The position numbers and the translations under genes are program-made. The notes under the pieces were generated by a model. That model worked only from the letters and a program-made list of their open reading frames with translations. It was not told the DNA's origin and ran no database searches. From contig JAMCRP010000001.1 of NCBI GenBank assembly GCA_023380635.1, forward strand, positions 469,200 through 533,199: DNA of 64,000 nucleotides. The letters are read 5' to 3'. Below are positions 11,476 through 54,975 of the stretch, piece by piece; the first letter of the stretch is position 1, and each line of letters starts with the position of its first letter. The DNA comes from Patescibacteria group bacterium. GTDB lineage: Bacteria > Patescibacteriota > Microgenomatia > JAMCZE01.

Positions 11476-13441
11476 ACCTATGACTCTGCCCTTTTTTAAA
11501 AAGAAGCCAGTAGCTAATCAGCCCAGCCAGCCGGCACCCGACCGGAAGAGCGTCAGTACCACTCCTATCTCCCAATCACCGATTACTAACCAAGCCGTCA
11601 ACCGCCTCCAGCCAACCTCCCCCTCCTCTTCGGTTTTGGATATCATCGCCCCGGAAAAAATCGAGGTGGATTTTAATTTTGTCAAAATCAGCGAAACCTA
11701 TTTCCGGACTTTTTTTATCGCCAATTACCCCCGATTTGTGTCTGCCAGCTGGCTGTCGCCGATTATCGATTTTGACTCGTCCCAGGATCTGGCCATGTTT
11801 ATTTACCCGGTAGAATCCCGGGATATTCTGTCTAACTTAAAACGCAAAATTGCCGAAATGGAGGCAACTATCGAGTCGGACATTAAACGGGGGCATGTGG
11901 TCGACCCGGCCGTTCAGGTGGCTTTAGATGACGCTTTAGCCTTACAAGAACAGCTGGCCAAAGGGGCCGAACGATTTTTCCAGTTTGGTCTTTATGTCAC
12001 GATTAACGCCCAATCTTTGGACAATTTAGAGAAGGTCAGTAAGCAAGTGGAGTCGACTTTGGCCTCCTTGATGTTGGTTTCCAAAAAGGCCACCTTGCAA
12101 ATGGAAGACGGTTTTCGCACTACCCAACCGCTTTGTGTCGATAAACTGCTCATCACCCGCAATATGGATACCACATCTCTGGCCACGACTTTTCCGTTTA
12201 CTTCCTCAGAATTGACGGCCAACGAAGGAGTGATGTACGGCTTAAACGAGCACAACGGCAGTTTAATTATTTTTGACCGGTTTAGTTTGGAAAACGCCAA
12301 CGAGGTAGTATTAGGAAAAAGCGGCGGCGGAAAATCTTACCTGGTAAAACTGGAGGCTCTGCGTAGTTTAATGTTTGGGGCCAGTGTAATTATTATTGAT
12401 CCAGAGGAAGAATATGAACCCATAACCCGGGCCGTTGGGGGCGATTACCTCTCTTTTTCGTTTAGTAGTCAAACCCACATTAATCCTTTTGATTTAGCCG
12501 GCACCAACGATGACCCGCAGGAAAATGATTTGCAGTATAAAATCGGCTTTTCCTTAACCCGGCTCATTAAACTCATGGTAGGAACGACGACCGCCGAAGA
12601 CGACGCCATTATTCATAACGCCTTAGAGCTGACCTACAAACAAAAAGGCATTACCTACGACCCGACGACCCACAAAAAAGAACCGCCGATTCTGGAAGAT
12701 TTATATAAAGTTCTGGTCGGCATGGAAACGCCGGCGGCGGCCAATCTCGCCTTGCGCCTGGAAAAGTTTGTCAAAGGCAGTTTTGGGGCCATTTTTAACC
12801 AGCGCAGCAATCTCAAACTGGATAACCCGTTTACCGTCTTTTCCTTCAAAAATCTCGAGGACCAGCTTCGCAGTTTGGCAATTTTTATTATTGTGGACTT
12901 TATCTGGAATTCTATTAAACGCGACTTCAAAAAGCGGATCTTGATTGTGGATGAAGCCTGGTATCTTATGAAAGACCCTTCTTCGGCGGAATTTTTGTGG
13001 GGTTTTGCCAAGCGGGCCCGGAAATACTACCTGGGTTTAACTACCATCACTCAGGACATTGAAGATTTCTTAAGTTCCGACCTGGGCAAGACGATTATTA
13101 CCAATAGCAGTATCCAAATTTTAATGAAACAGTCACCGGCGGCGATCGACAAGTTGGGCGAGGTTTTTTACCTGTCTGAAGGCGAAAAAAGCTTGCTTAT
13201 GTCCGCCGGGGTTGGTCAAGGTCTCTTTTTTGCCGGTTCTTCCCATGTGGCTATGCGAACCATCGCTTCTCCCGATGAACATAAACTAATCACTACCAAT
13301 CCGTTGGAAAAGAGTAGTTCCACTACGGCGCAACCCGCCGGCCCAACTCTAGCTCAGCCGGTTACTCCTCCGGTTCCCACCACTCCACCTATTACCCCCG
13401 TATCACCCGCCTCTCCTACCCCTGAACCCGGACCGGCATAA
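11456..13441 (+). CDS. virB4: Type IV secretion VirB4/TrbE/PrgJ-like ATPase (central and C-terminal ATPase domains)
   Basis: Walker A LGKSGGGKSY, Walker B ILIVDEAWYL, QDIEDF/TNSS motifs; Pro/Thr-rich C-terminal tail. TTG start at 11456. Confidence 0.8.
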   Translation: MKRLPNKPMTLPFFKKKPVANQPSQPAPDRKSVSTTPISQSPITNQAVNRLQPTSPSSSVLDIIAPEKIEVDFNFVKISETYFRTFFIANYPRFVSASWLSPIIDFDSSQDLAMFIYPVESRDILSNLKRKIAEMEATIESDIKRGHVVDPAVQVALDDALALQEQLAKGAERFFQFGLYVTINAQSLDNLEKVSKQVESTLASLMLVSKKATLQMEDGFRTTQPLCVDKLLITRNMDTTSLATTFPFTSSELTANEGVMYGLNEHNGSLIIFDRFSLENANEVVLGKSGGGKSYLVKLEALRSLMFGASVIIIDPEEEYEPITRAVGGDYLSFSFSSQTHINPFDLAGTNDDPQENDLQYKIGFSLTRLIKLMVGTTTAEDDAIIHNALELTYKQKGITYDPTTHKKEPPILEDLYKVLVGMETPAAANLALRLEKFVKGSFGAIFNQRSNLKLDNPFTVFSFKNLEDQLRSLAIFIIVDFIWNSIKRDFKKRILIVDEAWYLMKDPSSAEFLWGFAKRARKYYLGLTTITQDIEDFLSSDLGKTIITNSSIQILMKQSPAAIDKLGEVFYLSEGEKSLLMSAGVGQGLFFAGSSHVAMRTIASPDEHKLITTNPLEKSSSTTAQPAGPTLAQPVTPPVPTTPPITPVSPASPTPEPGPA

Positions 13442-14555
13442 TAATGTGGAGAAAATTGTCGTCTTTAGGTAAGCGAAAAACCCCAGCAGTCAAGGGACCA
13501 TTAAAATCGATAATTAGTTCCGTGCTCCCCACTGCGACAAACAAATCCAAAAGGTAACGATAATTAAACGCCACCACAAACTCTTCGTCAGCGCCTTTTT
13601 TCACTGTAATATCAATCTCACTCTCGTTCTCGCCAACCTCCGGCGCGTTTGCGCTGATTTTCAGTTTTCCCTTGTCTATTTTAAGCTTAACAATATTGGC
13701 GCTGTCGCGGGCAAAAATTGAAGCTAACTTAATAGCTTTCGAAAACTCTTCGGTTGCGGCCGTAACCTGAATTGTCGAATTTGCAGGAATAATTTTCTCA
13801 TAGTCAGGAAAATTACCGGCAATTAGGCGGGAATATATTTTTATTTCTCCCAAGTCAAAGGCCACCTGATTGATTTCCGGCAGGTAAATCATGAGAAAAG
13901 CTTTCTCATTCTCCCCTTTTTCTTCTCCTAAAAGCCGGTTAACTTCCGCCAGAGTTTTTGCCGGAATAATAAACTTCGTCTCTTTCTGGCCGCCTTCAGC
14001 CGGAATCTTATTAACCGACAGCCGGAAACCATCGGTTGCCGCCAGGGTTAAACCAACTTCGTCGCTGCTAAACAAAACTCCCGTCAAAACCGCCCGGCTT
14101 TCATCCTGGCCAGCCGCAAAAGCTACTTTACTGACACCTTCCTGGAACGCCTTTTTGTCTATTTTCCACTGGGCTTTAGTCTTTTCTTCCGGTACCAGCT
14201 TAGGAAACTCTGTCGCCGGGGTCCCGGCAATTTTCCCTTTAAATTTACCCCCGGAAAGGGTCAAGACGCCGTCCTTTTGGCTTATGGTAAGTTTCTCTGC
14301 CGGCAAGCCTGCTACCAGCTCTAAAAAGGTCCGTCCCGGCACGGTGTATTCTCCAGCTGCTTCAATTTTAGCCCCAATAGAGGTCATGATTGTGGTTTCC
14401 AGGTTTGAGGCAGTAATCTGCAATTGCCCGGTTTCCGTGCGCAGAAGAATATTAGAAAGAATCGCCACCTGCGGCCGGCTGGCTAAAACCCGGGCAACGG
14501 TGTTTAGTCCCCGGTTAAGATTTTCCTGAAGAACTTCCAGCTCCATCGTCCCCAA
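13416..14555 (-). CDS. dnaN: DNA polymerase III beta sliding clamp
   Basis: Three-domain beta-clamp pattern, about 379 aa, immediately downstream of dnaA; the start could equally be the M4 codon at 14546. Confidence 0.9.
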   Translation of the reverse strand: MGTMELEVLQENLNRGLNTVARVLASRPQVAILSNILLRTETGQLQITASNLETTIMTSIGAKIEAAGEYTVPGRTFLELVAGLPAEKLTISQKDGVLTLSGGKFKGKIAGTPATEFPKLVPEEKTKAQWKIDKKAFQEGVSKVAFAAGQDESRAVLTGVLFSSDEVGLTLAATDGFRLSVNKIPAEGGQKETKFIIPAKTLAEVNRLLGEEKGENEKAFLMIYLPEINQVAFDLGEIKIYSRLIAGNFPDYEKIIPANSTIQVTAATEEFSKAIKLASIFARDSANIVKLKIDKGKLKISANAPEVGENESEIDITVKKGADEEFVVAFNYRYLLDLFVAVGSTELIIDFNGPLTAGVFRLPKDDNFLHIIMPVRVQG

Positions 14556-14692
14556 TATACGATCTTAATAGTTTTTTTGCAACTTTCGTCTTTTTCTATT
14601 TCCAACTAGTAGTAACAGTAGTAGGCATTGTGAGTAAGTGACTAAAAACGGCGGGAACTGTGTATAGATTGTCTGTTACGGATTTTTTTCGT

Positions 14693-14833
14693 TGTGGATA
14701 TCTCTTAGGGGTGATTGTGAATATCTTTGAGGACAAACCTTCGGGGTTTGGGGATAAGTTGATAAGTTTTGGGGTTCTCCACTTATCCACAACTAGTTAA
14801 AAAAATATTCAGGAGTTATCCACAACTAGTTAA
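14693..14833. promoter_or_regulatory. oriC DnaA-box cluster and AT-rich region between dnaA and dnaN
   Basis: Perfect TTATCCACA at 14783-14791 and 14816-14824, each within an 18-bp direct repeat TTATCCACAACTAGTTAA. Degenerate boxes TGTGGATAT (14693), TGTGAATAT (14716) and GGGGATAAG/TTGATAAG (14746-14765). AT-rich stretch at 14570-14640. Confidence 0.6.
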
Positions 14834-16202
14834 CCAGGAGTTGTTGGAGTTGTTCTACTTCACCTCGGATACGCTCGTTGGTTTCTAATAAAGCCGAAAC
14901 TTTGTTAACGCCATGAATGATTGTGGTGTGGTCCCGGCCGCCGAGATAGTCGGCAATTTCTTCATAGGTCATTCCTCCCTTGTGGCGCAGGAGATACATG
15001 AGGATTTGCCGGGGTACGGCAATAGGCTTATCTCGCTTTTCGCCTTTAATAAGCTTTATTGGTAACTCGTAAAAAGCGCACACCCGGTCAACGATCAGCC
15101 GGGCGTCCAGCCTGGTTACCGCCTGAGCGGGAGTTTCTTTAATCTCCAGCACCTTTAGGACCAGTTCCGGAGTAAGTTCCAGTTTGTTTGCTTGAGCAGC
15201 CATAAGAATTTTTTGTAAGGCTCCCTCGAGAGACCGGATATTATCCACATTACTGGCAATAGAAAAGGCCACACTATTGGATAGTTCAATTCCTCGTTTA
15301 CGAGCTTTCTGCATACAGATAGCCGTCTTTAATTCTGAATCCGGTGTGGATATGTCGGCCACCATCCCGCCTTCAAACCGGCTGCGTAAGCGGTCGGCCA
15401 GATCAGCAATATCGGCGGGCTTGCGGTCGGAAGTCATGACAATCTGGCCGCCGTTTTGGGAAATGGCGTTAAAGGTATGGAAAAATTCTTCCTGGGCGGT
15501 ATCTTTACCGGAAAGAAACTGGATATCATCTATTAGTAAGGCGTCAGCCGACCGGTACCTTTCCTTAAATTCGGCCGTGTTTTTCGAGCGGATGCCGGCA
15601 ATAATTTCGTTGGTAAACTGCTCGCCGGGGGCAAAAATAATTTTAGCCCGCGGGTTTTTACGAAGTATCTCGTGGCCTACTGCCTGCATAAGGTGAGTTT
15701 TGCCCACGCCTACCCCGCCCCAAATAAACAGCGGGTTATAGTTTTTGCCGGGGTTTTGAGCCGTGGCCGTCGCGGCGGCAAAAGCCAGCTGATTACTGGT
15801 CGAGACGCAAAATTCTTCAAAGGTAAAATCAGGACGAAGGTGGCAACGCTTGATAGCGTCGAGTAGTTCTTGTTTATCTTCCTTGGGTTGGGCAAATAAC
15901 GGACCAGGTTCAGTTTTAGCTTCCGGTGTAGTTTGTGATTGGAGGCTAGTATCCACGTCAAAAACGAGACTTAATGGAGAAACGGTAGAGATTTTTTGTA
16001 AACTGTTTTGAATTAAGCTGTAATACCGAGAGCTTGTTGATTGGGCAACACCCTTATTCTTAAAACCTAATTTGGCAACACCATTTTCCAGAGAAAGAAG
16101 TGTACTATTTTTTAAATAAATGCCGAAATTATTTTTTCCAAGCTCGACCTCAAGTTCTCCAAGTGTAGCCTTCCATAAATCATGAAGTTGATCGTTGTTC
16201 AT
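14826..16202 (-). CDS. dnaA: Chromosomal replication initiator DnaA
   Basis: AAA+ Walker A GGVGVGKTHL and a C-terminal DnaA-box binding domain. The start is taken at the ATG at 16202 (MNNDQLHDLW...), which matches DnaA N-termini. The ORF-track start at 16244 would place the DnaA boxes inside the CDS. Confidence 0.9.
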   Translation of the reverse strand: MNNDQLHDLWKATLGELEVELGKNNFGIYLKNSTLLSLENGVAKLGFKNKGVAQSTSSRYYSLIQNSLQKISTVSPLSLVFDVDTSLQSQTTPEAKTEPGPLFAQPKEDKQELLDAIKRCHLRPDFTFEEFCVSTSNQLAFAAATATAQNPGKNYNPLFIWGGVGVGKTHLMQAVGHEILRKNPRAKIIFAPGEQFTNEIIAGIRSKNTAEFKERYRSADALLIDDIQFLSGKDTAQEEFFHTFNAISQNGGQIVMTSDRKPADIADLADRLRSRFEGGMVADISTPDSELKTAICMQKARKRGIELSNSVAFSIASNVDNIRSLEGALQKILMAAQANKLELTPELVLKVLEIKETPAQAVTRLDARLIVDRVCAFYELPIKLIKGEKRDKPIAVPRQILMYLLRHKGGMTYEEIADYLGGRDHTTIIHGVNKVSALLETNERIRGEVEQLQQLLVN

Positions 16203-16243
16203 GTGGATAGCGGCAGTATGCCCTATCTTACAAGTTATCCACA
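16203..16243. promoter_or_regulatory. DnaA boxes immediately upstream of dnaA (autoregulatory or oriC upstream cluster)
   Basis: TGTGGATAG at 16203-16211 and a perfect TTATCCACA at 16235-16243. Confidence 0.5.
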
Positions 16244-16305
16244 AAAATTCAAGGTATCTTACTAGGTCATCTTTACTCTAATAAACAGAGAATTAAACTT
16301 ATATC

Positions 16306-16334
16306 TTGACATAATTATCCCTATGGGATAGATT
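16306..16334 (+). promoter_or_regulatory. Sigma70-like promoter (TTGACA-17-TAGATT) with an embedded palindrome TATCCCtatGGGATA
   Basis: TTGACA at 16306-16311 and TAGATT at 16329-16334. The inverted repeat at 16316-16330 overlaps the spacer and -10; the ATG at 16350 lies about 9 nt past the predicted TSS. Confidence 0.4.
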
Positions 16335-16349
16335 CTTTGTATTCTCTTT

Positions 16350-16877
16350 ATGGTCAATAAAAATAATCCTGAAGTAAGACTCTACCGATCAGAAAAAGAC
16401 GTTAGGCGAGGTGATCTCCGGCAACTCATTACCCACTTTAGGGATGTTCTGAAACTGGAGCTTCAGGGAGACGACCTTGATTGGCTAGTTGGTCTTTTTC
16501 AAAACAGCCGTGTAGTGGCTAATAGCCGATTTGAAATAATTTTACCGAATGACACGGTGGTTATGGAAACTCTCCGTCGGGACAGAAAAATAACCCGCTG
16601 TTATTTAGTGCGGGGTATAGATGACCCCAAAAGGATCCATTTACAAGTAAACAGCAGAATTAAAAAAAGAGATATCTATCAAAGGAATGCGGAAGTTGAT
16701 GGTATTTTCCCTTTCCGTATTACAGGTATCAGAGAATCTGGTTCCTCGGACGGCGACCTTCTTACATTTTGTGCTTTAGGAACCCATGGTGGGGTGACGA
16801 TTACAGAAGACGGTAGGGTTGAGTTTCACCAGATGAACAACGAAGAACACAAGACTTTACATAGGCTTCATCTTTAA
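16350..16877 (+). CDS. Hypothetical protein (175 aa) inserted between dnaA and rpmH
   Basis: Clean ORF with its own promoter-like signal; no recognisable motif. Confidence 0.5.
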   Translation: MVNKNNPEVRLYRSEKDVRRGDLRQLITHFRDVLKLELQGDDLDWLVGLFQNSRVVANSRFEIILPNDTVVMETLRRDRKITRCYLVRGIDDPKRIHLQVNSRIKKRDIYQRNAEVDGIFPFRITGIRESGSSDGDLLTFCALGTHGGVTITEDGRVEFHQMNNEEHKTLHRLHL

Positions 16878-16929
16878 AACATCTTTCCCTCTTCCCAATC
16901 TCACTGATTTTTGACATAATCGGACTACT

Positions 16930-17067
16930 ATGCCTAAACGTGTCTGGCAACCAAAAAAAGTAAAACGGGTCCGCAAGCACGGGTTTTTGGAAAGAATGAA
17001 AACCCATGACGGCCGCAAGGTGCTCAAAAGACGGATAGCTAGGGGCCGCAAAAAACTAACGATTTAA
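16930..17067 (+). CDS. rpmH: 50S ribosomal protein L34
   Basis: [45 protein letters not shown] is a 45-aa L34. It is below the ORF-track cutoff and was found by hand. Confidence 0.9.
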
Positions 17068-17414
17068 TGCTTCCGCGCAAAAAGACCGTTAATTTAAAAA
17101 AAGAATTTCCCAAAATCCGGCAAACCGGCAAAAACTACGATTCCCCCTCCTTTGGTCTCTTAGTCTCCTATAATAATAGTAATAAGACGACCCAGGTGGC
17201 CTTTATTATTAGTAAAAAAGTCGATAAAAAATCTGTAGTTCGGCACGAGGTAAAAAGAAAGCTTTCAGACGCTATTGCTTTTTTTCTGCCTCACTTAGCC
17301 AATAATCTGGAGCTCGTTTTCCTTGCTAAGCAAAAAGCAGTACAATCCGACCGTGACCAACTTAAAACCGAAATCGAAACCGTTCTCCGTCGCGCTCGTC
17401 TTATTGCTGATTAA
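17067..17414 (+). CDS. rnpA: Ribonuclease P protein component
   Basis: Basic 115-aa protein directly after rpmH (TAATG overlap), with a KKV..AV.RNR.KR-like RNase P protein pattern. Confidence 0.8.
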   Translation: MLPRKKTVNLKKEFPKIRQTGKNYDSPSFGLLVSYNNSNKTTQVAFIISKKVDKKSVVRHEVKRKLSDAIAFFLPHLANNLELVFLAKQKAVQSDRDQLKTEIETVLRRARLIAD

Positions 17415-17565
17415 TTTTTATCGGCGTTACCTTTGGGCCCTGTTTCCTTCAAAGTGTCGGTATACTCCCACTTGCTCTGAATATACCTACCAACAAGTTC
17501 AAAAACTTGGTACAATAAAAGGATTGTCTTTAGGCTTTAAACGAATATTATCCTGTCATGGGTAA
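17323..17565 (+). CDS. yidD: Membrane protein insertion efficiency factor YidD
   Basis: INFYRRYLWALFPSKCRYTPTCSEY...KRILSCHG matches YidD. The start is uncertain because the long overlap with rnpA is unusual. Confidence 0.7.
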   Translation: MLSKKQYNPTVTNLKPKSKPFSVALVLLLINFYRRYLWALFPSKCRYTPTCSEYTYQQVQKLGTIKGLSLGFKRILSCHG

Positions 17566-18304
17566 CTTTTTCTTACAAATCATCTTGTTTATATATAACA
17601 CCATTGCCTTTCACAACCTCGGCGTGGCCATTATTGAAATCGCCGTTTTAACCCGGGTCATTTTCTACCCGTTTATTAAGCAGCAGACCCACTACAGCAA
17701 AAAAATGGCCGAGCTCCAGCCACACATTAACGCGCTTAAAGAAAAACATAAAGGAAACCAGCAGGCTTTCGCCCAGGCGCAAATGGAGTTGTTTAAGCAA
17801 CACGGAGTCAACCCGGCGGCCGGGTGTTTGCCGTCAATCGTCCAGATTGTAGTTCTGTTTGGTCTCTTGGGAGCACTGAATAATATTTTAAAAATGGACC
17901 ATATAAACTTGGATTTCTGGGTCTGGAATATGGCCAAGCCGGATGCGGTCAAAATTGATGGCCTTCCCTTTTTAGTGCCTGGGATCCTGGTTGTTCTGGC
18001 TGCCCTGACCCAATTTATCCAAACCAAAATGATGTTGCCGGTGGCCCCTAAAATCCGCAAAGAAGATAAACCGGCGGAAAAACAGGAGAAGAGCGATTTC
18101 ATGAGCGAATTTGCCGAGGCCCAAAGTTCCATGATTTGGATGTTTCCCTTAATGTTTTTATTTTTAGGCACCCAGTGGCCCTCGGGTCTGGCCCTTTACT
18201 GGACAATTAGCTCCGTTTTAATGATCATCCAGCAGTACCAAATCGCGGGACTTGGCGGATTGGAACAATATATAGTACAATTAAGAAAGTATGCCAAGAG
18301 CTAA
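17558..18304 (+). CDS. yidC: Membrane protein insertase YidC (short form)
   Basis: YidC/Oxa1 core (...QPHINALKEKHKGNQQAFAQAQMELFKQHGVNP..GCLP...) with multiple TM helices. Confidence 0.8.
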   Translation: MGNFFLQIILFIYNTIAFHNLGVAIIEIAVLTRVIFYPFIKQQTHYSKKMAELQPHINALKEKHKGNQQAFAQAQMELFKQHGVNPAAGCLPSIVQIVVLFGLLGALNNILKMDHINLDFWVWNMAKPDAVKIDGLPFLVPGILVVLAALTQFIQTKMMLPVAPKIRKEDKPAEKQEKSDFMSEFAEAQSSMIWMFPLMFLFLGTQWPSGLALYWTISSVLMIIQQYQIAGLGGLEQYIVQLRKYAKS

Positions 18305-18806
18305 AAAGACCGCCGAACCCCAGTCCAAGGCTGGTCCGCCCCAGGCGGGAAAAACCGAAAACTTTACCGAGGTGGTAAGAAGTACCGCTGAAGAGTTGCT
18401 GTCGCAACTCCAGATTGAAGCGACGGTTAGTGTTTCTGAAGTCGAGGGAATCTACAATATAAATCTGGAAACGCCGGAATCAGGGCTTTTAATTGGCTAT
18501 CACGGCGAAACCCTGTCCTCTTTCCAGCTGATTTTAGGCCTCATGATTTACAAACGTACCGGTTCCTGGGTTAAAGTGGTGGTGGAAGTTGGCGACTACC
18601 GAGCGAAACGGGCCGAACAACTGACGGCCATGGCCGAGTCTTATGCTAATCAGGTGGTTTCTACCGGCCAAGCCATTACTCTGCCACCGTTGCCGCCGGC
18701 CGAACGCCGGGTCATCCACATGGCGCTGCAAAACCGCGGTGATGTCGAAACCGAATCCGTTGGTGAAGGAAATCAAAGAAGAGTGGTTGTAAAACCAAAA
18801 GTATGA
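18291..18806 (+). CDS. jag: Jag/KhpB RNA-binding protein (KH + R3H domains)
   Basis: C-terminal R3H motif (RRVIHMALQN...GEGNQRRVVV) and its position after yidC. Confidence 0.75.
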   Translation: MPRAKKTAEPQSKAGPPQAGKTENFTEVVRSTAEELLSQLQIEATVSVSEVEGIYNINLETPESGLLIGYHGETLSSFQLILGLMIYKRTGSWVKVVVEVGDYRAKRAEQLTAMAESYANQVVSTGQAITLPPLPPAERRVIHMALQNRGDVETESVGEGNQRRVVVKPKV

Positions 18807-29743: not shown

Positions 29744-30724
29744 TTAGATTAAATCAAGGGCAGGGTTGGCGTCAACTTGTTGCCACGGAGCTGTCTTTTG
29801 GTTGAAGTAGGCAGCCGACGCAATGTAAGCGGCGTTATCAGTACAAAGTTGTATTGGCGGTACATGAAGAGTAACCGTAGTCGGTAGTCTGTAGACAGTA
29901 GATTGTAACTTTTCTCGTAGTCGTTTATTGGCGGCCACGCCGCCGGCCAGGAGAACACTTTTTACCTGATATTTTTCCGCTGCTTGCAAGGTTTTTCTAA
30001 CCAGAACATCGGTAACGGCTTCCTGAAGTTCGTAAGCAATTTCTTTAGAGTTTGGTGTCAAGCGGGAAGCGTAAAGAGAAGAAACCGCGGTTTTTAAGCC
30101 GCTAAAGCTAAAATCTAAATTTTTCTCGTTAATCATTGGCCTGGGTAACTTGACGCTTAACGCTTGACGCTTAACGCTTTCGGCTGCTTTTTCAACGGCT
30201 GGTCCGCCGGGATAACCGAGGTCAAGCAGTCTGGCACACTTATCAAAACATTCTCCGGCAGCGTCATCCCGGGTGCCCCCAAGATATTTAATGTTGCTGT
30301 GATCTCGCATAAGGATTAATTCGCTGTGCCCTCCGCTAACCAGTAACACCATTGCGGGTAAAACCGGGGGAGTCCCCGTCAGCCAATTAGCGTAAATGTG
30401 GCCAATAAGATGGTTGACAGGAATAAGGGGCTTTTTCCAGGCCAGAGCCAAGGCCTTAGCGGTTTCCACACCAACAAGTAGACTGCCAATCAGTCCGGGA
30501 CCAATAGTTACTGCGATCGCATCAAAATCAGTAATCATGGCTTCTTTTAAAACAGGAATCATTGAAGCCAATTGTTCCCGGGCTGCTTGTTCCGGAATAA
30601 TCCCGCCAAACTTAGCATGCATGGCCTGAGAACTGGCTACCACATTAGAAACTATCTTGGTTCCATCTTCAACAATAGCTGCCGCCGTTTCGTCACAGGA
30701 AGTTTCAATCCCTAATATGCGCAT
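29744..30724 (-). CDS. tsaD: tRNA N6-adenosine threonylcarbamoyltransferase TsaD
   Basis: MRILGIETSCDETAAAIV N-terminus, FSFSGLKT and HxxH-family pattern. Confidence 0.9.
   Translation of the reverse strand: MRILGIETSCDETAAAIVEDGTKIVSNVVASSQAMHAKFGGIIPEQAAREQLASMIPVLKEAMITDFDAIAVTIGPGLIGSLLVGVETAKALALAWKKPLIPVNHLIGHIYANWLTGTPPVLPAMVLLVSGGHSELILMRDHSNIKYLGGTRDDAAGECFDKCARLLDLGYPGGPAVEKAAESVKRQALSVKLPRPMINEKNLDFSFSGLKTAVSSLYASRLTPNSKEIAYELQEAVTDVLVRKTLQAAEKYQVKSVLLAGGVAANKRLREKLQSTVYRLPTTVTLHVPPIQLCTDNAAYIASAAYFNQKTAPWQQVDANPALDLI
30149..30180 (-). repeat. 7-nt tandem repeat x4 (ACGCTTN) inside tsaD
   Basis: acgctta acgcttg acgctta acgcttt on the plus strand; it encodes the SVKRQALSVK duplication in a TsaD loop. 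Confidence 0.55.
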
Positions 30725-30971: not shown

Positions 30972-32435
30972 CTAATTAGTTTTCGTACCCCGCAAGTATC
31001 TAGCAGGCCAAGGAACATAATCTGACCAAACTGTTTCGTTAATTAGAGTTTGCCCGCTGCGGGTGACCAGTCTTTTAAAGTAAACTTTTGCCCCATAGTG
31101 GGCTGTGTCAACCTGAGTAACAACGCCTACCGGCTTAGTTGGGTCGTCTTCATAAATCGGCGCCGGCGGGGGAGCGGTCGAAACAATCACTGGGCCGGTA
31201 ATATTTACTACTCGGTTATCCGAGGTCCCGAAAAGATCAAAAGTTAATTTTTTATTGGCTTCATCAAAGGTAGTTTGAATTAAAATCCAACCGTTAGTAT
31301 CGTTTTTAAACCTAAAGTCTGGATCGGGAGGGTAAACCGTTGCATCCAGGCCGGGCAAAAAGCCGCCCTGTTCATAATAGCCGACCCGGTATGAATGGGC
31401 GGTGCGGGCGATCACTGGTAACCCTGCGTTTAAAACCGCCCGGTATAAAGTCGTCGACACTTGGCAAACGCCACCGCCGTCATCCAAAACGGTTTTTCCC
31501 TCTTTAATGGAGTAGGCCTTCGCAAAGCCAAAAACGGCTGAAACCGTGCCAATCGCCTGATCAAATGAAAAAGTTTCCCCGGGGGCTACCAAGCTGCCGT
31601 TAATTTTACTGGCGCCCAGAGAAATGTTATAAACGCGGCCGGGGATGGAATCATAAAAATAGGATTCGCCCCGTCCCAAGAGGGTTTTAATGCCCAGACT
31701 ATCGGCTGTCGAGGAATTGACTGAAGGGTAGATTACCTGGGTCGGCAGAATATAAGTAGCTGTAGTCGGCTGCCTGTAGTCAGCAGACTTCTTGGCGGCG
31801 GCCAAAATGGTTTCCTTAATTTTTTCCCGGTCGATACTTAGCCCGTTTTCGGAAGGGCGGAAAGCGGTGACGCGGCCCCGGCGGTCCGGTCCGCTATTGG
31901 GCACAAACTGATAAACCGCGTCGACGGCCACTTTTTCGATCTTGGGCGCTACCGTGTCAATTTTTTGGTCGAGAGGTTTTTCGTCGAAATTAACTTCAAA
32001 GGGTAAATTAATCTGGTTTTGCCAGGCGGCGACAATCTGCAGGAAATTGTAATAAGGGTTGGGGGTTTGCCGGCCGATAGAAAAAGCCCGTCTGGCCATA
32101 AGGCCGGTGTCGGGACGAAGGTTTAATTCTTTACCGGTAGCCGACACGGTTGCTTTGGGGTCAGAAAAAACAAAACTCAAGCTGTTTAAAGAGTTCGCGT
32201 ATCTTAAGCTTAATTCTTTCTCCAGTTCCGGTTCGGATTTGCCGGATACTTCCACTCCGGCCACTCTGACACCGGGATAAACTTTGTTTTTAAAAGTGGC
32301 GGCAAAGACCAAATATAAAGCGGCGCTTATGCTTAAAGCGGTTACCGTGGCGCCCAGCAGAAAAAAGAAGGTTGTCTTTAAAAAAGCGCGCGTCCGGTGC
32401 ATAATGATGGTAATCATTGTAGCAAAGATGGACAC
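30972..32435 (-). CDS. VanW family protein
   Basis: N-terminal TM, middle PG-binding-like region and C-terminal VanW pattern (GYYEQGGFLPGLDATVY). Confidence 0.6.
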   Translation of the reverse strand: MSIFATMITIIMHRTRAFLKTTFFFLLGATVTALSISAALYLVFAATFKNKVYPGVRVAGVEVSGKSEPELEKELSLRYANSLNSLSFVFSDPKATVSATGKELNLRPDTGLMARRAFSIGRQTPNPYYNFLQIVAAWQNQINLPFEVNFDEKPLDQKIDTVAPKIEKVAVDAVYQFVPNSGPDRRGRVTAFRPSENGLSIDREKIKETILAAAKKSADYRQPTTATYILPTQVIYPSVNSSTADSLGIKTLLGRGESYFYDSIPGRVYNISLGASKINGSLVAPGETFSFDQAIGTVSAVFGFAKAYSIKEGKTVLDDGGGVCQVSTTLYRAVLNAGLPVIARTAHSYRVGYYEQGGFLPGLDATVYPPDPDFRFKNDTNGWILIQTTFDEANKKLTFDLFGTSDNRVVNITGPVIVSTAPPPAPIYEDDPTKPVGVVTQVDTAHYGAKVYFKRLVTRSGQTLINETVWSDYVPWPARYLRGTKTN

Positions 32436-33687
32436 TAAAAAAATCCTGCTTTTAGCCGGAGGAGTTTTGGCCGTTCTAATCGTCGCCCTGGTAGTGTTTC
32501 TCCTGACTTTCGTGCGCCGGGTCGGCCCGGTAACTTTAACCTACTGGGGTTTGTGGGAGCCGGAGGAGGTTTTTCAGGGAATAATTGCCGATTACGAGCG
32601 TCTCCATCCCAATGTCACCATTAAATATATTAAGCAATCACCGTTAAATTACCGCGACCGGGTGGTGACGGCTTTATCCGGTACCAACGGTCCGGATATT
32701 GTCCGGATTCACGATAGCTGGGTGCTTACTCTGGCTTCGGGCTTATCTCCAATGCCGGCCAATGTTTATTCCCAGGCTTCTTTTAAACAAACTTTTTATC
32801 CAGCGGCCGCTACTCTTTATCCTTACGCGATCCCCCTGGAAATTGACGATTTGGCCATGTATGTTAACGATGATATTTTGCGGGCCGGGGGGGTCAGTGT
32901 CCCAACCATTTGGGACGGCGACCAGGGGTTTATGGCGACAGCCAGGAAACTAACGGTCCGGGACAGCAGCGGCCGGATTAAAACTGCCGGAGCGGCTATG
33001 GGGACAGCTTCCAATGTTGACCAGTGGCAGGATATTGTGGGTTTAATGATGGCTCAGGCAGGCGATAACTTTAACGCTGAGGCTCTGAATTACTATGTGG
33101 CTTTTGCCACTTCCGAACATATGTGGGACGAAACCCTGGATAATTCCACTCTGGCTTTTGCCAACGGCCAGGTGGCGATGTATTTTGGCCCGTCATGGCG
33201 CTATTTTGACATTAAACAAATCAACCCGAACTTAAATTTCCATCTGGCCCCGGTACCCCAGTTGGCCGGGGGAGCGGCCGCTAATTATGCTTCCTTTTGG
33301 ACCGAAGCCGTTTCCAAGCGCAGTTCTCATCAAAAAGAAGCCTGGGACTTTCTCAAATACCTTTCCAGCAGAGAAGTCTTAACGAAGTTATATGCGGCTG
33401 AAACTAATGTCCGGGGTTTCGGGGAGCCTTATGCGCGAACCGATATGGCCGATCTGCTCTCTGCTGATCCCAATGTTGGCCCGTTTATCGCGGCTGCGCC
33501 GACAGCCAAGACCTGGTATCTCGCATCTAACACCGGCGACGGGGACACCGGCATCAACACCCGGATCGGCAAATACTATGCTGATGCCATAAACTCTATG
33601 CTCCAGGGCAATAACGCCTCTTCCGTCCTGCAGACAGTGCAGCAAGGGGTAACTCAGGTACTTTCACAATATGGTCTTACAAAATAA
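32428..33687 (+). CDS. ABC transporter extracellular solute-binding protein (family 1, sugar-type)
   Basis: TM/signal anchor then LTYWGLWEPEE...; about 420 aa periplasmic binding fold. Start at the internal ATG at 32428. Confidence 0.65.
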   Translation: MDTKKILLLAGGVLAVLIVALVVFLLTFVRRVGPVTLTYWGLWEPEEVFQGIIADYERLHPNVTIKYIKQSPLNYRDRVVTALSGTNGPDIVRIHDSWVLTLASGLSPMPANVYSQASFKQTFYPAAATLYPYAIPLEIDDLAMYVNDDILRAGGVSVPTIWDGDQGFMATARKLTVRDSSGRIKTAGAAMGTASNVDQWQDIVGLMMAQAGDNFNAEALNYYVAFATSEHMWDETLDNSTLAFANGQVAMYFGPSWRYFDIKQINPNLNFHLAPVPQLAGGAAANYASFWTEAVSKRSSHQKEAWDFLKYLSSREVLTKLYAAETNVRGFGEPYARTDMADLLSADPNVGPFIAAAPTAKTWYLASNTGDGDTGINTRIGKYYADAINSMLQGNNASSVLQTVQQGVTQVLSQYGLTK

Positions 33688-33807
33688 ATTCCAAACCACA
33701 AATTCCAAACAAACTCCAATTTTTAAAAATTCAAAACCCGTAGCTTGAGGACTTTGGAGTTTAGAACCTAAGACTTGTTTGGAGCTTGTGTTTGGAACCT
33801 GGAATTT
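33686..33807. repeat. Long imperfect hairpin built from AAATTCCAAAC-family repeats between convergent genes (probable bidirectional terminator)
   Basis: Arms AAATTCCA(33687-33694)/TGGAATTT(33800-33807), TTCCAAAC(33703-33710)/GTTTGGAA(33790-33797) and CTCCAA(33714-33719)/TTGGAG(33779-33784). Confidence 0.5.
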
Positions 33808-34799
33808 TATCGATCTGCTTCTTCTTTCCAATATTTTAGTAAATCCTTCCCGATAATGGCCAGAGCTGAGGTTACCGGAATGGCAAAAATAGCGCCCCAG
33901 ACGCCGGCCAGTTTGTAGCCGATTAAAAACGAAAGCAGGACAATAATCGGATGAATTTTCAAGGCTGTGCCCATGAGTTTTGGAGCCACAAGGTTGTAAA
34001 CCAGCTGGGCGGCCAAAATGACCACGATTACGGCAATAATCATTTTCTGAACCGAGACTGTCAGCCCGGCCAAAATTATCGGAATGACAAAGATTACTGA
34101 TCCCACGACCGGAATCATGGCCAAAATGCCGGAAAGAAGAGCAGTAGACAGGGCAAAGTTAATGTTGAGAATAACCAGAGTGAGTAGAGTAATTAGTCCC
34201 AGCAGCAAGCCCAAAACAACCTGAATCTGAATAAAGGAAGCAAAGGTCTGGTTTAGAGTTTTTTCTAGGAACAGGTAATCCTCTTCATATTCGTCGGGAA
34301 TAATATCCAGGAAAAACTTGGAAATTTCCTTGCGGGAGATCAAAAAGTAAAACGAGAGAATCAGAATCAAAAGTAAATTAGTCGCCGTGGTAGCGACTCC
34401 TGATGCCAGAACCAGAGAATTATTGGCGGTCGTGCTTAAGAAACTTTCGACCCGGGCAGACAAGAAAGAATTATCCGGCAGGTAAGCCGGAACCAGGGTG
34501 GCCAGCTGGGAAAACTGAGTGACCATTGTTGGTAACACAACAAGAACCAACAAAACCACACCGGCCGCTAAGGCCAGATAAGTAATAATAGCCGCGGCTA
34601 TTCGCGGTATCCCGCCGGAAGAAATTTTAACGACCAGTGGTTCAAGAATGAAAGCCAGAACCCAGGATAAAATTAGAAGGATAAACAAATCAGCAAAAAG
34701 GCCCAGGAAAGAGCTAAACAGACCCAACAAATGCCAGCCGAGAGTTATAATGCCAAGGATGGCCAAAATCCGCAGCTCTGGAAAGTCTTTAAACTTCAT
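33807..34799 (-). CDS. AI-2E family transporter (UPF0118/PerM-like)
   Basis: 330 aa with about 8 TM helices and the family-typical topology. Confidence 0.6.
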   Translation of the reverse strand: MKFKDFPELRILAILGIITLGWHLLGLFSSFLGLFADLFILLILSWVLAFILEPLVVKISSGGIPRIAAAIITYLALAAGVVLLVLVVLPTMVTQFSQLATLVPAYLPDNSFLSARVESFLSTTANNSLVLASGVATTATNLLLILILSFYFLISRKEISKFFLDIIPDEYEEDYLFLEKTLNQTFASFIQIQVVLGLLLGLITLLTLVILNINFALSTALLSGILAMIPVVGSVIFVIPIILAGLTVSVQKMIIAVIVVILAAQLVYNLVAPKLMGTALKIHPIIVLLSFLIGYKLAGVWGAIFAIPVTSALAIIGKDLLKYWKEEADR

Positions 34800-35607
34800 T
34801 AATTCTCATTATAGCCAACCCCGATCCGTTTTCAATCGGGGCCGGCTCGCTGCCGTTGTCTACGCTGACCTCTTTGGCTATCCGCTGACGGTTAAAGAAG
34901 CCAAACTTTGGGACATCCGCCAGGTCAGGGCAAAATATTCTTCGCAAAAAGAAAAAGAAGCGCTAAAAGTTACGGGGCTGCTAAAAAAAATCCCGACAGT
35001 GGCGGCAGTCTTTTTAACGGGGTCGGTGGCCGCGCAGAATGCCACTTCTAGGGCTGATATTGATTTAATGATCGTCACCCAGCCTAATACTTTATGGCTG
35101 ACGCGATTATTGGTATTTCCCTGGCTAAAACGGCGGTTTTGTCCCAACATTTTTCTCGATTTAAACCATTTGGAAATTAAGGATCAGAATTTGTTCACTG
35201 CCCATGAAATATTACAAGCAAAATGTTTATATGACCGGGACAAGGTAGAACGACGGTGGTTGAAGGTTAATTTGTGGACAAAGGAATACTTACCAGAGGC
35301 CTACAAAAATTCCAAATCCCGAATTCCAAATCCCAAACATGCTTTAAATTCAAAATCGCAAACCCCGAAATTTTGGAATTTTCCCAATTGGACATTGAAA
35401 TTTATTTGGAATTTGGTGCTTAGCGCCTGGAATTTATTTTTACTTATCCCGGAATTTTTTGCTTTTCTCTTTCAGTATTTGTATATGAAACCAAAAATGA
35501 CTCATGAACGGGTGGGTTGGGGCTTTGCTTTTTTTCACCCTTACAACTTATCAGAAATAGTGGTACAAAAGTTTGAGAAGAAATTGCTAAAATATACCCA
35601 CCTATGA
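34750..35607 (+). CDS. Nucleotidyltransferase-domain protein (Pol-beta superfamily)
   Basis: GS...(x)9..DIDLMIV motif (LTGSVAAQNATSRADIDLMIV). The start is uncertain; the ORF-track start at 34648 overlaps the divergent gene. Confidence 0.45.
   Translation: MPRMAKIRSSGKSLNFINSHYSQPRSVFNRGRLAAVVYADLFGYPLTVKEAKLWDIRQVRAKYSSQKEKEALKVTGLLKKIPTVAAVFLTGSVAAQNATSRADIDLMIVTQPNTLWLTRLLVFPWLKRRFCPNIFLDLNHLEIKDQNLFTAHEILQAKCLYDRDKVERRWLKVNLWTKEYLPEAYKNSKSRIPNPKHALNSKSQTPKFWNFPNWTLKFIWNLVLSAWNLFLLIPEFFAFLFQYLYMKPKMTHERVGWGFAFFHPYNLSEIVVQKFEKKLLKYTHL
34808..34841 (-). promoter_or_regulatory. Promoter-like TTGAAA-16-TATAAT (minus strand) overlapping a CCCCGAT/ATCGGGG hairpin; leaderless start for the AI-2E transporter gene
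   Basis: Reverse complement of 34830-34835 is TTGAAA and of 34808-34813 is TATAAT. Hairpin arms at 34819-34825 and 34835-34841. Confidence 0.35.
35305..35390 (+). repeat. AAATTCCAAA-family repeat with an internal inverted repeat, in frame inside the nucleotidyltransferase CDS
   Basis: AAAAATTCCAAATCCCGAATTCCAAATCCCAAAC ... GAAATTTTGGAATTTTCCCAATTGG; it encodes NSKSRIPNPK...KFWNFPNW. Confidence 0.5.
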
Positions 35608-49695: not shown

Positions 49696-49713
49696 AATTT
49701 GAAATTTCAAATT
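49696..49713. promoter_or_regulatory. Perfect 18-bp palindrome AATTTGAAATTTCAAATT at the deoC start
   Basis: Self-complementary; lies between the LOG stop (49690) and deoC. Confidence 0.4.
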
Positions 49714-50396: not shown

Positions 50397-51314
50397 ATGC
50401 TGCCCGAGTTTGTTTGCGTGGGGGACGCGACCCGCGATTTTTTCATTTTTCCTGAAAGCCTGACCGTAACCAACGGCAAACTGGAGCTGGAATACGGGGC
50501 CAAAATTCCGGTTTCCGACATTGCCTGGTCGCTGGGCGGCAACGCGGCCAATGTTTCCGTGGGACTGTCCCGGCTGGGAATAAACGCTGCCTTGGTAACC
50601 ATCTTTGGCGATGACGACCGGGGAGTCTGGATTAAACGGGAACTAATGAAAAATAATGTCGTTTTAGACTATTCTGTAATTGATCCGGCGCGCCAGTCCA
50701 ATCTATCGACGGTGATCGTGGTCGGCGGCGACCGGACAATTTTAAGCTATCACGCTCCAACAACTCAAAAAATCGCTAAAATCCCTGAAACTAAGTGGCT
50801 GTATCTGACCTCGTCTGCCGGAAAAAGTTCCGACGAAACCTTTGCGGCGATAGAAACTTTCCTGACTGCCCGCGGCCAATCGGGCGGTCTCTGCCCCAAA
50901 ATTGCCTTTAACCCCAATATGCAGGATTTAAAGAAGGGCCGGGAATATCTCCAATCGATTTTAGCAGTGACCGAAGTTTTAATCCTTAATAAGGAAGAGC
51001 TGGAAACTTTAATCGGGGAAGTGACAGAAGAAAAGATGCGGGAACTAGGACCAAAAATAATTGCCGTGACTGACGGACCCAACGGGGCCGGAATTTTTGA
51101 TGGCCAAAAGTATTGGCAAAAACCTTCTGTCGGCGGTAAAGCAGTTGAAGCCACCGGAGCCGGAGATGCCTTTAGCAGCGGCTTTCTGGCCGCGCTGTAT
51201 TACGGTAAAAATCTGGAAGAGGCCCTCGATTGGGGACTGCGAAATTCAGGTTCTGTTATTAAGAGGGTTGGAGCCATAGAAGGTCTCCTGGATAAAAATG
51301 CTATCTCAATTTGA
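50397..51314 (+). CDS. PfkB-family carbohydrate/nucleoside kinase (ribokinase-like)
   Basis: GGNAANVSVGLSRLG and GAGDAF motifs. Confidence 0.7.
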   Translation: MLPEFVCVGDATRDFFIFPESLTVTNGKLELEYGAKIPVSDIAWSLGGNAANVSVGLSRLGINAALVTIFGDDDRGVWIKRELMKNNVVLDYSVIDPARQSNLSTVIVVGGDRTILSYHAPTTQKIAKIPETKWLYLTSSAGKSSDETFAAIETFLTARGQSGGLCPKIAFNPNMQDLKKGREYLQSILAVTEVLILNKEELETLIGEVTEEKMRELGPKIIAVTDGPNGAGIFDGQKYWQKPSVGGKAVEATGAGDAFSSGFLAALYYGKNLEEALDWGLRNSGSVIKRVGAIEGLLDKNAISI

Positions 51315-51362
51315 AATTTGAATTTTTCAATTTGAATTTAATTTCAAATTTTAAATTTCAAA
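51308..51362. repeat. AT-rich block of TTTGAAATT / AATTTCAAA inverted motifs upstream of the aldolase gene
   Basis: AATTTGAAATTTGAATTTTTCAATTTGAATTTAATTTCAAATTTTAAATTTCAAA; related to the deoC palindrome and to the AAATTCCAAA repeat family. Confidence 0.4.
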
Positions 51363-51387
51363 ATGAAAATTGGAGTTGAAAAAGAAA

Positions 51388-53967: not shown

Positions 53968-54975
53968 TTGATGATGAAACTGTTAACAATTGATCAGGAA
54001 GAAGTGAAGGAGAAGCGGGTGCTGGTAAGGGGAGATATTGACGTTCCGCTTCAAATTCCAAGCTCCAAATCCCAAATTCCAATAATCACTGACGACACAC
54101 GACTGCAAGCGATGAAACCGATGCTGGAATACCTTATTAAAAACGAGGCTTCGGAAATAATTCTTTGCGGACATATAGGCAGGCCGGAAGGGAAAGTGAG
54201 GCCGGAGTTGTCAACTAAACCCGTACAAGAATGGATAAGCGGGAAAGTGGGTAAGCAGGTAAGGGTTTTAGAAAACTTAAGGTTCGACCCGAGAGAAGAG
54301 GCCAATGATGAAAGTTTCGCGCGCGAATTGGCCGCAATGGCGGATATTTATATTAATGAAGCTTTTGCCGCTTGCGAGAGAGAACACGCGTCTATCGTCG
54401 GAGTACCGAAGCTGCTCCCGCATTACGCTGGATTTAGGTTAGCGGAAGAGGTAGAAAAATTAAGCAGGGTAATGGATAACCCGGAGAGACCAATGCTGGT
54501 AATTATCGGCGGAGCGAAGTTGGAAACAAAACTGCCGGTCATTACAAAAATGGTGCAAGCGGCTGATGAGATAGTTGTGGGAGGGAAATTGTTGGGGGAG
54601 ATAAAGGACAAAGGATCCGGAACAAAGATCCACTACCTTGAATTGACTGACGGCGGGAAAGATGTCACACTGGAATCAATCGACGCTAATAAAGAGGCGA
54701 TTGCCGACGCAGCGACCATTGTCTGGAACGGGCCGATGGGAGTAGTGGAGGACTACACCTTTCAAGTTGGCACTAGGAGAATCGCCGAATTGGTCGCCAG
54801 CAATCAAAAGGCGAATAAGATTATCGGTGGCGGGGATACAATTGGATTTGTGAATAAGTTGGGGTTATTAGATAAGTTTCAGTGGGTGAGCACGGGCGGA
54901 GGGAGCATGCTGAAATTTTTAGCCGGGGAAAAACTACCCGGCATTGAAGCACTTTATGATCAGACTGGCAATTAA
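53968..54975 (+). CDS. pgk: Phosphoglycerate kinase
   Basis: KRVLVRGDIDVPL...ITDDTRL, GHIGRPEG, GGGDT motifs; 335 aa. Confidence 0.85.
   Translation: MMMKLLTIDQEEVKEKRVLVRGDIDVPLQIPSSKSQIPIITDDTRLQAMKPMLEYLIKNEASEIILCGHIGRPEGKVRPELSTKPVQEWISGKVGKQVRVLENLRFDPREEANDESFARELAAMADIYINEAFAACEREHASIVGVPKLLPHYAGFRLAEEVEKLSRVMDNPERPMLVIIGGAKLETKLPVITKMVQAADEIVVGGKLLGEIKDKGSGTKIHYLELTDGGKDVTLESIDANKEAIADAATIVWNGPMGVVEDYTFQVGTRRIAELVASNQKANKIIGGGDTIGFVNKLGLLDKFQWVSTGGGSMLKFLAGEKLPGIEALYDQTGN
54049..54087 (+). repeat. AAATTCCAA-family repeat inserted in frame in the pgk N-terminal loop
   Basis: TTCAAATTCCAAGCTCCAAATCCCAAATTCCAATAATC encodes QIPSSKSQIPII, which is absent from canonical Pgk between DVPL and ITDDTR. 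Confidence 0.55.

Follow-up and report, generated by a model that had tools for sequence, protein, structure and literature searches.

The question raised by a 64,000-nt stretch of the genome of a Patescibacteria group bacterium (GenBank assembly GCA_023380635.1, contig JAMCRP010000001.1, positions 469,200 to 533,199 of the forward strand; the whole stretch is called the window here) is what kind of element leaves similar short, A/C-rich sequences both between genes and in frame within genes. Four such sites, S1 to S4, were recognised. We favour, with a probability of roughly 60%, the explanation that they are copies of a non-coding palindromic heptamer element lacking an open reading frame (ORF), which belongs to a cross-phylum class including the intervening sequences (IVS) of rRNA, is selfish or neutral, is copied between sites and is reshaped by 7-nt slippage. 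Under this explanation S1 would be a complete copy, S2 an old and decaying complete copy, and S3 and S4 single-arm fragments, the A/C-rich arm standing first and the G/T-rich arm second. Larger relatives of the class carry a gene for a PF05635 four-helix-bundle protein in the loop.

The preliminary description of this DNA had taken a 10-12-mer as the repeat unit. Instead, the repeat proved to be a degenerate heptamer array with a 7-nt period, built of the units CAAATTC, CAAATCC, CAAGCNC and CAAACAA and leaving one strand poor in G; Tandem Repeats Finder (TRF) reported a period of 7 or 14 at 35307-35337, 54048-54082 and 56902-56933, and S1 can also be parsed into heptads. That the CAAATTCCAA repeat is a genuine over-represented short-repeat family, as had been proposed, was upheld by dinucleotide shuffling: the exact sequence occurs six times on the two strands of the window against 0.38 expected, a count that none of 100 shuffles reached, and CAAATTCCAARC with at most one mismatch occurs eight times against 1.4 expected. 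We then read the window, at E<0.01, with an nhmmer profile of 127 arms taken exclusively from other genomes. The profile picked out S3 (54051-54087, E 1.3e-8), S2 (35306-35345, E 4e-8), S4 (56901-56937, E 5.9e-7) and S1 (33685-33709, E 2.5e-4), and no further site in the window at that threshold; the G/T-rich arm of S2 was matched at E 0.012. Both the sequence and the foreign-arm profile therefore support the four main sites as originally placed (33686-33807, from 35305, 54051-54087 and 56901-56937), except that the second, correctly started at 35305, had been ended too early at 35390, a boundary omitting its G/T-rich arm at 35402-35435. Heptamer loci of the CAAATTC type thus number four in 64 kb, three of them inside reading frames. 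The unit order AAATTCC-AAGCNCC-AAATYCC is seen at S3 and S4 and at loci of several phyla. Heptamers of this general kind, the cyanobacterial STRR sequences, were reportedly described by Mazel et al. in 1990; the canonical STRR units CCCCAGT, TTGGTCA and CAACAGT are not among the units of the window, which are AAATTCC, AAATCCC and AAGCNCC.

S1 (33686-33807) was recognised as a complete, ORF-less heptamer palindrome from its sequence, inverted repeats, folding and profile match. Its A/C-rich arm extends over approximately 33686-33737, the loop over 33738-33752 and the G/T-rich arm over 33753-33807. It occupies the whole 119-nt gap between two convergent stop codons, namely that of a solute-binding protein (SBP) gene on the forward strand (32284-33687; Pfam SBP_bac_1), which overlaps the first bases of S1, and that of an AI-2E transporter gene on the reverse strand (33807-34799; Pfam AI-2E_transport; NCBI MCL4397949.1), which overlaps the last base. 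S1 holds 11 inverted repeats (I1-I11), and its fold reaches -32.9 kcal/mol for RNA (z -3.8; 0 of 200 shuffles as stable) and z -3.1 for DNA, so that the long imperfect stem-loop of ~120 nt described earlier between these genes was confirmed. Folding each copy gave a divided result: among S1-S4, only S1 is a significantly stable hairpin, S2 being no better than shuffles and S3 and S4 being unstructured single arms. The gene order VanW-SBP-AI-2E(-)-nucleotidyltransferase-SpoIID is kept in four related contigs. In the syntenic contig L143, the SBP and AI-2E stop codons lie only 4 nt apart, and S1 is therefore a lineage-specific insertion.

The position of S1 brings up the possibility of a selected cis-acting RNA element, i.e., a bidirectional terminator, an RNase III site or an mRNA-stabilising 3' structure, of which the copies in genes would be by-products. 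Such an element would suit a significantly stable hairpin placed exactly between two convergent stop codons, and among the matches listed from other genomes (described below) ~20 of ~35 hairpins have a stop codon at a distance of 60 nt or less. On either strand an A-rich arm precedes a U-rich one, a polarity like that of bidirectional terminators, and IVS stems are RNase III substrates (PMC4990558). Nevertheless, we consider this explanation decidedly unlikely. Of the four window copies, three lie within reading frames; S3 and S4 have no structure, S2 has lost its stability, and in the relative L143 a gap of 4 nt suffices where S1 would lie. The terminator-like character once ascribed to S1 did not survive a simple terminator scan, which was negative: the stem is ~45 bp long and A/U-rich and is followed by only four U, unlike the short G+C-rich stem, small loop and U-tract of an intrinsic terminator. 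No Rfam family matched; at E up to 10 nothing relevant was found on S1, the best hit being a chance miRNA-like match (E 0.59). A role of S1 as a 3'-end or RNase III element is plausible.

S2 (35305-35440, forward strand) appears to be a decayed full-length copy lying in frame, as judged from its alignment with S1, which spans the whole length of S2, from the profile and from the alignment of orthologues. It comprises an A/C arm (35306-35345) and a G/T arm (35402-35435), and encodes ...KNSKSRIPNPKHALNSKSQTPKFWNFPNWTLKFIWNLVLSAWNLF..., a peptide including KNSKSRIPNPK; its fold (z -0.8) is that of a shuffled sequence. The host gene (34759-35607, forward strand; PF18765) encodes a Polbeta-type nucleotidyltransferase of 282 aa, identical to the NCBI protein P0121. 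In the orthologue alignment, the insert is located between W(T/V)KEYLP (WTKEYLP in the window) and FELxAFxxQYLYMKPK. One nucleotidyltransferase clade lacks the insert, with 6 nt at the site in L145, and most other orthologues have 20-60 extra residues there, in which a hydrophilic K/N/Q/S/P stretch is followed by W/L/G/I. This is the order expected from translating the A/C arm and then the G/T arm. Two orthologous sites still fold as hairpins, of 156 nt in L142 (-44.3 kcal/mol, z -2.9) and of 150 nt in L144 (-44.9 kcal/mol, z -4.6). Where the window has AAATTCC on one arm and GGAATTT on the other, these two have AATTTCC and GGAAATT, so that at a single orthologous site both arms have switched unit. 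Among the comparisons made, only this one of orthologous sites shows a two-arm change. The insert of L142 also contains TTGGTCA, the STRR2 unit. In addition, the closely related orthologues P0126, P0131 and P0132 differ by a 7-residue indel, QPRFDRG (21 nt, three heptamers), inside the insert, which is consistent with an in-frame length change by three-unit steps.

The other two copies are single A/C-rich arms identified from the sequence and the profile. S3 (54051-54087, forward strand; ~5 heptamers) lies in frame in the gene for phosphoglycerate kinase (PGK; 334 aa, 53971-54975, forward strand; P0001 at 100% identity, PF00162), where it encodes QIPSSKSQIPI between DIDVPL and ITDDTRL in a loop of the enzyme. 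In the alignment the insert is absent from the nearest PGK homologues, the closest of which in the collections is only 64% identical to that of the source organism, so that no near relative of this organism is represented there. The loop is hypervariable, other lineages having unrelated inserts of 0-28 residues in it. One of these, in the homologue P0049, is a 28-residue insert, SLRGASAASDAAIQDKIASSSSTPRNDM, resembling what another palindromic repeat, rich in G+C, would encode; a comparable DNA motif, gtcattgcgaggagcggagcgacgcggcaatctcg, adjoins a heptamer array in L108. S4 (56901-56937, forward strand; 4 heptamers) lies in the N-terminal extension or the leader of a class II (B12-dependent) ribonucleotide reductase (RNR; 56820-59312, forward strand; identified by Pfam; MCL4397973.1). 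NCBI annotates the long, 830-aa form, in which S4 encodes VPNSKHQIPNT within the first 60 residues and the RNR Pfam domains begin at residue 62. Met52 is an alternative start; if it is the true one, S4 would lie in the leader and would not be coding. The earlier claim that copies lie in frame within coding sequences holds, since the nucleotidyltransferase and PGK inserts were demonstrated against insert-free orthologues.

Three of the four copies translate to similar peptides (QIPSSKSQIP, VPNSKHQIPN and KNSKSRIPNPK), which might suggest selection at the protein level for a recurrent QIPNSK-like motif, or simply a frequent codon pair. The likeness follows from the DNA, however, because (AAATTCC)n yields an identical cyclic peptide, KFQIPNS, in every frame, 7 and 3 being coprime. 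We regard a protein-level motif as scarcely credible; it is refuted by the existence of non-coding copies, as S1 is intergenic and a relative of the family lies in 16S rRNA, and the inserts are absent from the nearest orthologues. Nor, given the intergenic copy and the relative in 16S rRNA, is the repeat an artefact of a common codon pair, which the preliminary description had named as a possible refutation. In all six frames AAATTCC, AAATCCC and AAGCACC are free of stop codons, and AAATTCC falls within the 18% of heptamers with two G/C that share this property.

The family is not private to the source genome, as a single scan of 185,579 species genomes with the pattern AAATTCCAARYNNNRAATYCCAAA showed. 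The scan returned at least 120 loci, where uniform composition would give, by a rough estimate, about four. Among the matches listed, to which all counts on foreign copies refer, the carriers span about 15 phyla, with at least 18 loci in Patescibacteria. They include Bacteroidota, with cultured Flavobacterium strains among them, Ignavibacteria, Calditrichota, Balneolaceae, Planctomycetota, Acidobacteriota, Aminicenantes, Desulfobacterota, Gammaproteobacteria, Omnitrophota, Verrucomicrobiota, Armatimonadota, Chloroflexota, Nitrospirota, Chrysiogenales, Stahlbacteria and a Dolichospermum. Foreign copies take three forms: hairpins (median fold z -7.3, n=28), single arrays and in-frame inserts. 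The A-rich arm comes first in 29 elements versus 7, several single-arm AAATTCC arrays are directly upstream of start codons, and candidates for in-frame inserts are on the sense strand in 21 cases versus 3 on the antisense strand. Ten in-frame inserts were confirmed by spanning or flanking Pfam domains, in leucyl-tRNA synthetase (LeuRS), isoleucyl-tRNA synthetase (IleRS), SecA (two), P-type ATPases (two), MurG, PriA, RluD and TrmD. The relative in rRNA was found in a Saccharibacteria metagenome-assembled genome (L008:1-448, reverse strand), in which a hairpin of the 16S rRNA is interrupted by 173 inserted nt at approximately model position 211, and this insert is composed entirely of the heptamer hairpin element.

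Some of the foreign loci have further peculiarities. The Patescibacteria LeuRS (L007:169-3648, reverse strand) has a NUDIX domain inside the synthetase besides its heptamer insert, and the Wolfebacteria IleRS (L101:3-3011, reverse strand) likewise has a histidine-phosphatase domain. A Flavobacteriaceae chromosome (L099:7000-7700) carries a long higher-order tandem array, in which (AAATTCC/AAATCCC)n blocks alternate with CTCGTCG and CTTGGCT heptamers at a period of ~110-140 nt.

The strongest competitor of copying between sites is a purely local origin, in which heptanucleotide microsatellites arose in place by slippage, the second arm was formed or kept matched by template switching at quasi-palindromes, nothing moved, and the copies are alike because mutation or selection converged on heptamers that are rich in A/C and free of stop codons. 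According to Mrazek (2007), as that work is cited in PMC4679880 and PMC4692102, heptamers outnumber every other kind of long simple repeat in bacteria and are presumed to slip. Copy number varies among Coxiella strains (PMC4990558) and, at the same intergenic sites, among Xanthomonas species (PMC4692102). Period-7 arrays of many different units are also abundant in carriers (138 arrays at more than 300 nt from the anchors in ~0.9 Mb), and the nucleotidyltransferase site has been kept while its unit drifted on both arms. Nevertheless, a local origin does not readily accommodate a non-periodic order of different units that recurs at unrelated sites of the window and in distant phyla: the alignment of 17 arms from about eight phyla has the non-periodic motif CAAATYCCAAACAAAYTY in common, which the search pattern did not demand. 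Nor would it lead us to expect that a profile made from foreign genomes picks out all four sites, that two copies in one Aminicenantes genome are ~86% identical over both of their complex arms (their loops differ in length), that the ends of the elements are sharp against unrelated flanks, or that the orthologous S1 site is empty. On balance we find a purely local origin improbable, though it is a serious contender. The order of units, the profile matches, the ~86% pair, the sharp ends and the empty orthologous site together argue that the element may well have been copied from site to site.

Several observations weigh against a copied element of cross-phylum class. S1 bears only a loose resemblance to S2, which has no significant fold, and therefore there is no sign of recent transposition in the source genome. 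Only four copies can be counted within the 64 kb, and the window contains no gene for a transposase (including Y1/RAYT), a reverse transcriptase, RNase III or a PF05635 protein. At 31 hairpins we found no target-site duplication of 6 nt or longer, the distribution being equal to that of controls; this is also what a local origin predicts and, together with the lack of any transposase found, is evidence against classical transposition. The persistence of a site while its sequence drifts, as at the orthologous nucleotidyltransferase sites, is equally expected of pure in-place evolution, and the likeness across phyla could be partly convergent in a low-complexity, A/C-rich vocabulary. The terminator scan, which did not call S1 with its short U-tract, counts here as well. 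Finally, each hairpin's own arms match each other no better than they match those of other elements (38 vs 32), and arm matching alone is therefore uninformative on selection for each hairpin. A claim of element-specific co-evolution of arms within the AAATTCC family was dropped after this test, and selection on individual hairpins of the family is not claimed. BLAST of S1 against phage and plasmid collections yielded no match, to which the low-complexity filter may contribute, and a pattern scan of IMG/VR gave only 20 loci, no sign that viruses are the main carriers.

The link between these hairpins and rRNA IVS is reinforced by the genes for PF05635 proteins. We surveyed 80 metagenome loci (L146-L225) with 73 testable PF05635 genes, using positions shifted by 900 nt as controls (n=99). 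Flanking inverted repeats with a score of at least 30 were present at 50 of the 73 genes but at only 1 of the 99 controls (medians 38 vs 18), and the lag-7 identity of the flanks had a median of 0.70 versus 0.375. A period-7 array was present in 74 of the 80 loci. The flanking arms are arrays of many heptamers, including AATTACG, AATTGCG, AATTATG, GGGGTCA, GGGGTTC, AAAAAGG, GGTTGAA and AGAGTTC. Conversely, a jackhmmer search seeded from L080 found a PF05635 ORF at L026, L071 and L080 among the loci of the AAATTCC family (a search with the pattern YDLEER found none), and no PF05635-like ORF occurs in the 64-kb window. In L026 (1-510) a hairpin of the AAATTCC/AAATCAC type holds the PF05635 gene, which takes up its loop. 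In L080, from Dolichospermum, a gene for a '23S rRNA-intervening sequence protein' (region L080:4430-4943, PF05635, E 5.8e-25) is flanked by two 33-nt arrays that are perfectly complementary, (TAATTCG)n and (AATTACG)n, beside (AAATTCC)3.

At the same locus, an Eco57I-like methylase of 1335 aa (L080:417-4424, reverse strand) is interrupted in frame at six places by NYELRITNYEL, encoded each time by an (AATTACG)n array, and an SNF2 helicase (L080:4924-7842, reverse strand) contains one such insert. The PF05635 gene is inserted between the methylase and helicase genes.

The PF05635 four-helix-bundle protein has the same fold as Avd, the accessory protein of diversity-generating retroelements. The family is very large and includes solved structures, and to our knowledge no role has been assigned to it. 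It is attractive to speculate that inverted heptamer arrays together with a PF05635 gene constitute a widespread, unrecognised genetic element, of which the rRNA IVS would be one special case. If this is the case, hairpins without an ORF and single arms (S1-S4, the cyanobacterial STRR, GGGAATC of Xanthomonas) may be its non-autonomous relatives, and the PF05635 protein may bind, spread or maintain the arrays, which can insert in frame into essential genes, particularly those of Patescibacteria. We put this forward tentatively, as a possibility that is more likely wrong than right. In Coxiella, a 28-bp IVS stem is cut by RNase III, and tandem heptamers, GACAGAT, precede the S23p ORF in a copy number that varies between strains (PMC4990558). 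In the searchable literature, heptamers were noted for the Coxiella IVS only, and we found no paper stating a general association between PF05635 and heptamers.

The heptamer hairpins resemble the IVS of Coxiella, Leptospira and Salmonella (PMC4990558) in having a long stem of terminal inverted repeats with heptameric direct repeats inside. The relative in L008 is inserted in an rRNA helix, and the genes in the hairpin loops of L026 and L080 belong to PF05635. Unlike these IVS, the window copies lie outside rRNA and have no ORF, and the described IVS use other units (GACAGAT in Coxiella).

The heptamer-repeat kind as such is already known, because arrays of this kind have been described in Xanthomonas, in Nostoc and as TAACTGA repeats. 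Xanthomonas genomes hold ~185 GGGAATC arrays each, of which 70-75 are arranged in inverted pairs (Rehm et al. 2015, PMC4692102), and Nostoc has GGGGA(C/T)T arrays; both are conserved in site but vary in length and sequence, and their function is not known (PMC4692102). The family described here shares with them tandem degenerate 7-nt units with a C-run, A-run and T-run on one strand, the frequent arrangement of arrays in inverted pairs able to form a stem-loop, sites that are kept between relatives while length and sequence vary, and perhaps a dispersed distribution. It differs in its AAATTCC/AAATCCC unit, too G-poor for a quadruplex, and in a unit order common to about 15 phyla, and three of the four window copies are inside reading frames, in contrast to the repeats of Xanthomonas and Nostoc, which keep out of coding sequence. 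TAACTGA arrays are common to Beggiatoaceae, Cyanobacteria and Bacteroidetes, by a transfer route that is not known (MacGregor 2015, PMC4679880). Like the AAATTCC family, they are heptamer arrays common to distant phyla and often directly upstream of start codons. Unlike it, they have a different unit, contain stop codons, are almost only intergenic and rarely form inverted pairs. We found no description in the literature of the AAATTCC family, of its distribution across phyla, of its frequent occurrence in frame within essential Patescibacteria genes or of the bracketing of PF05635 genes, and a search for the repeat strings themselves retrieved no paper.

The preliminary description had compared the copies with Rickettsia palindromic elements (RPEs), which were reportedly described by Ogata et al. 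in 2000. The comparison is apt for behaviour: both are palindromes of ~100-150 nt found between genes and in frame in conserved genes (S2; foreign LeuRS, SecA and RluD), at surface positions that tolerate insertion, and neither has its own transposase. Membership is not supported, as the host belongs to Patescibacteria and not to Rickettsia and RPEs are not known to be built of tandem heptamers. RPE families are known from Rickettsia only, unlike the cross-phylum heptamer class, and no sequence relation between the two is expected. The further suggestion of a MITE (miniature inverted-repeat transposable element) could not be established: S1 shares the small size and the terminal inverted repeats, but no target-site duplication, near-identical copies or transposase were found, the copies in the window being divergent. 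MITEs, REPs, BIMEs and REPINs (PMC2229807, PMC3184786, PMC3116915) are, like the heptamer hairpins, short non-autonomous palindromic repeats. The mosaic construction from a small vocabulary of motifs recalls BIMEs, and a possible tie to one dedicated protein family recalls REPINs, with RAYT in their case and, as proposed here, PF05635 for heptamer hairpins. In contrast to REPs and REPINs, the arms carry no GTAG or CGTC tag, and no RAYT or Y1 transposase is encoded in the window.

If S1-S4 are copies of such a selfish or neutral element, their history may be pictured as follows. The element would be copied to new sites, with sharp ends and no target duplication left behind, and then be remodelled in place as slippage adds or removes 7-nt units and as changes affect both arms. 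It would persist only where harmless, namely between convergent genes, in surface loops or at termini of proteins and in rRNA loops. Survival inside genes would be possible because the main units are stop-free in six frames and the A/C-rich strand gives a hydrophilic K/N/Q/S/P/I peptide. When transcribed, a complete copy would form a long imperfect double-stranded stem, like those that RNase III cuts from rRNA IVS, and between convergent genes this stem would probably define or protect the 3' ends of both mRNAs. Within the window, the outcome would be four small insertions that are probably neutral.

Heptamer repeats, such as STRR, and rRNA IVS have been known for ~35 years, and we know of no agreed origin or function for either. 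The evidence here ties both of them to PF05635 proteins, on the basis of a heptamer-built hairpin that occurs between genes, in essential genes, in 16S rRNA and around PF05635 genes. For the window alone the finding is modest, and its wider interest lies in the class and in the PF05635 link. The bracketing of PF05635 genes is strong. This evidence makes concrete experiments possible, and the carriers include cultured Flavobacterium strains. There are also consequences for annotation: elements open in six frames give rise to spurious ORFs and to N-terminal extensions that are false, and real proteins acquire low-complexity K/N/Q/S/P or W/L/G/I peptides from them, commonly in Patescibacteria.

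Two sites that had been listed as related to the repeat are real but are not the same repeat, being arrays of a different heptamer, AATTTGA, that were undetected by the AAATTCC-family profile. The first (51308-51362, no strand assigned; TRF and folding) is a hairpin of 8.3 copies with the T-rich arm first, between a PfkB and an aldolase gene; 51300-51372 folds with z -3.2, and the site is of the same heptamer-hairpin class as S1 with a different unit. The second (49696-49713, no strand assigned) is a perfect palindrome of 18 nt, AATTTGAAATTTCAAATT, located where two genes are 8 nt apart (z -2.3), and is a minimal form of the AATTTGA unit. AAATTTCAAA occurs four times in the window against 1.03 expected.

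Other candidate features were considered and rejected. Runs free of G or of C proved unspecific as a detector (87 observed, 45 expected). As judged from the sequence, there are no CRISPR arrays with spacers, no integron attC sites with RYYYAAC/GTTRRRY cores and no integration host factor (IHF) site WATCAANNNNTTR; G-quadruplexes were dismissed on finding GG runs only, and curved DNA on an A-tract phasing of 7 nt rather than 10.5 nt. At the Rfam gathering score the window matched only a tRNA, and no rRNA gene.

The remaining observations concern the rest of the window. The genes dnaN and dnaA on the reverse strand and rnpA, yidC and jag on the forward strand (13416-18806), together with a minimum of cumulative GC skew at 16-20 kb, mark the chromosome origin, which probably lies within 16245-17066; an ORF at 16350-16877 has no Pfam match. 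Near the origin region, PrgI-like and TraG/VirB4-like ATPase genes (9468-13441) represent type IV secretion or conjugation-like components. Another heptamer array lies within the TsaD gene (29744-30724, reverse strand), with 4.4 tandem copies of CTTAACG/CTTGACG at 30149-30179 and a period of 14 at 100% match.

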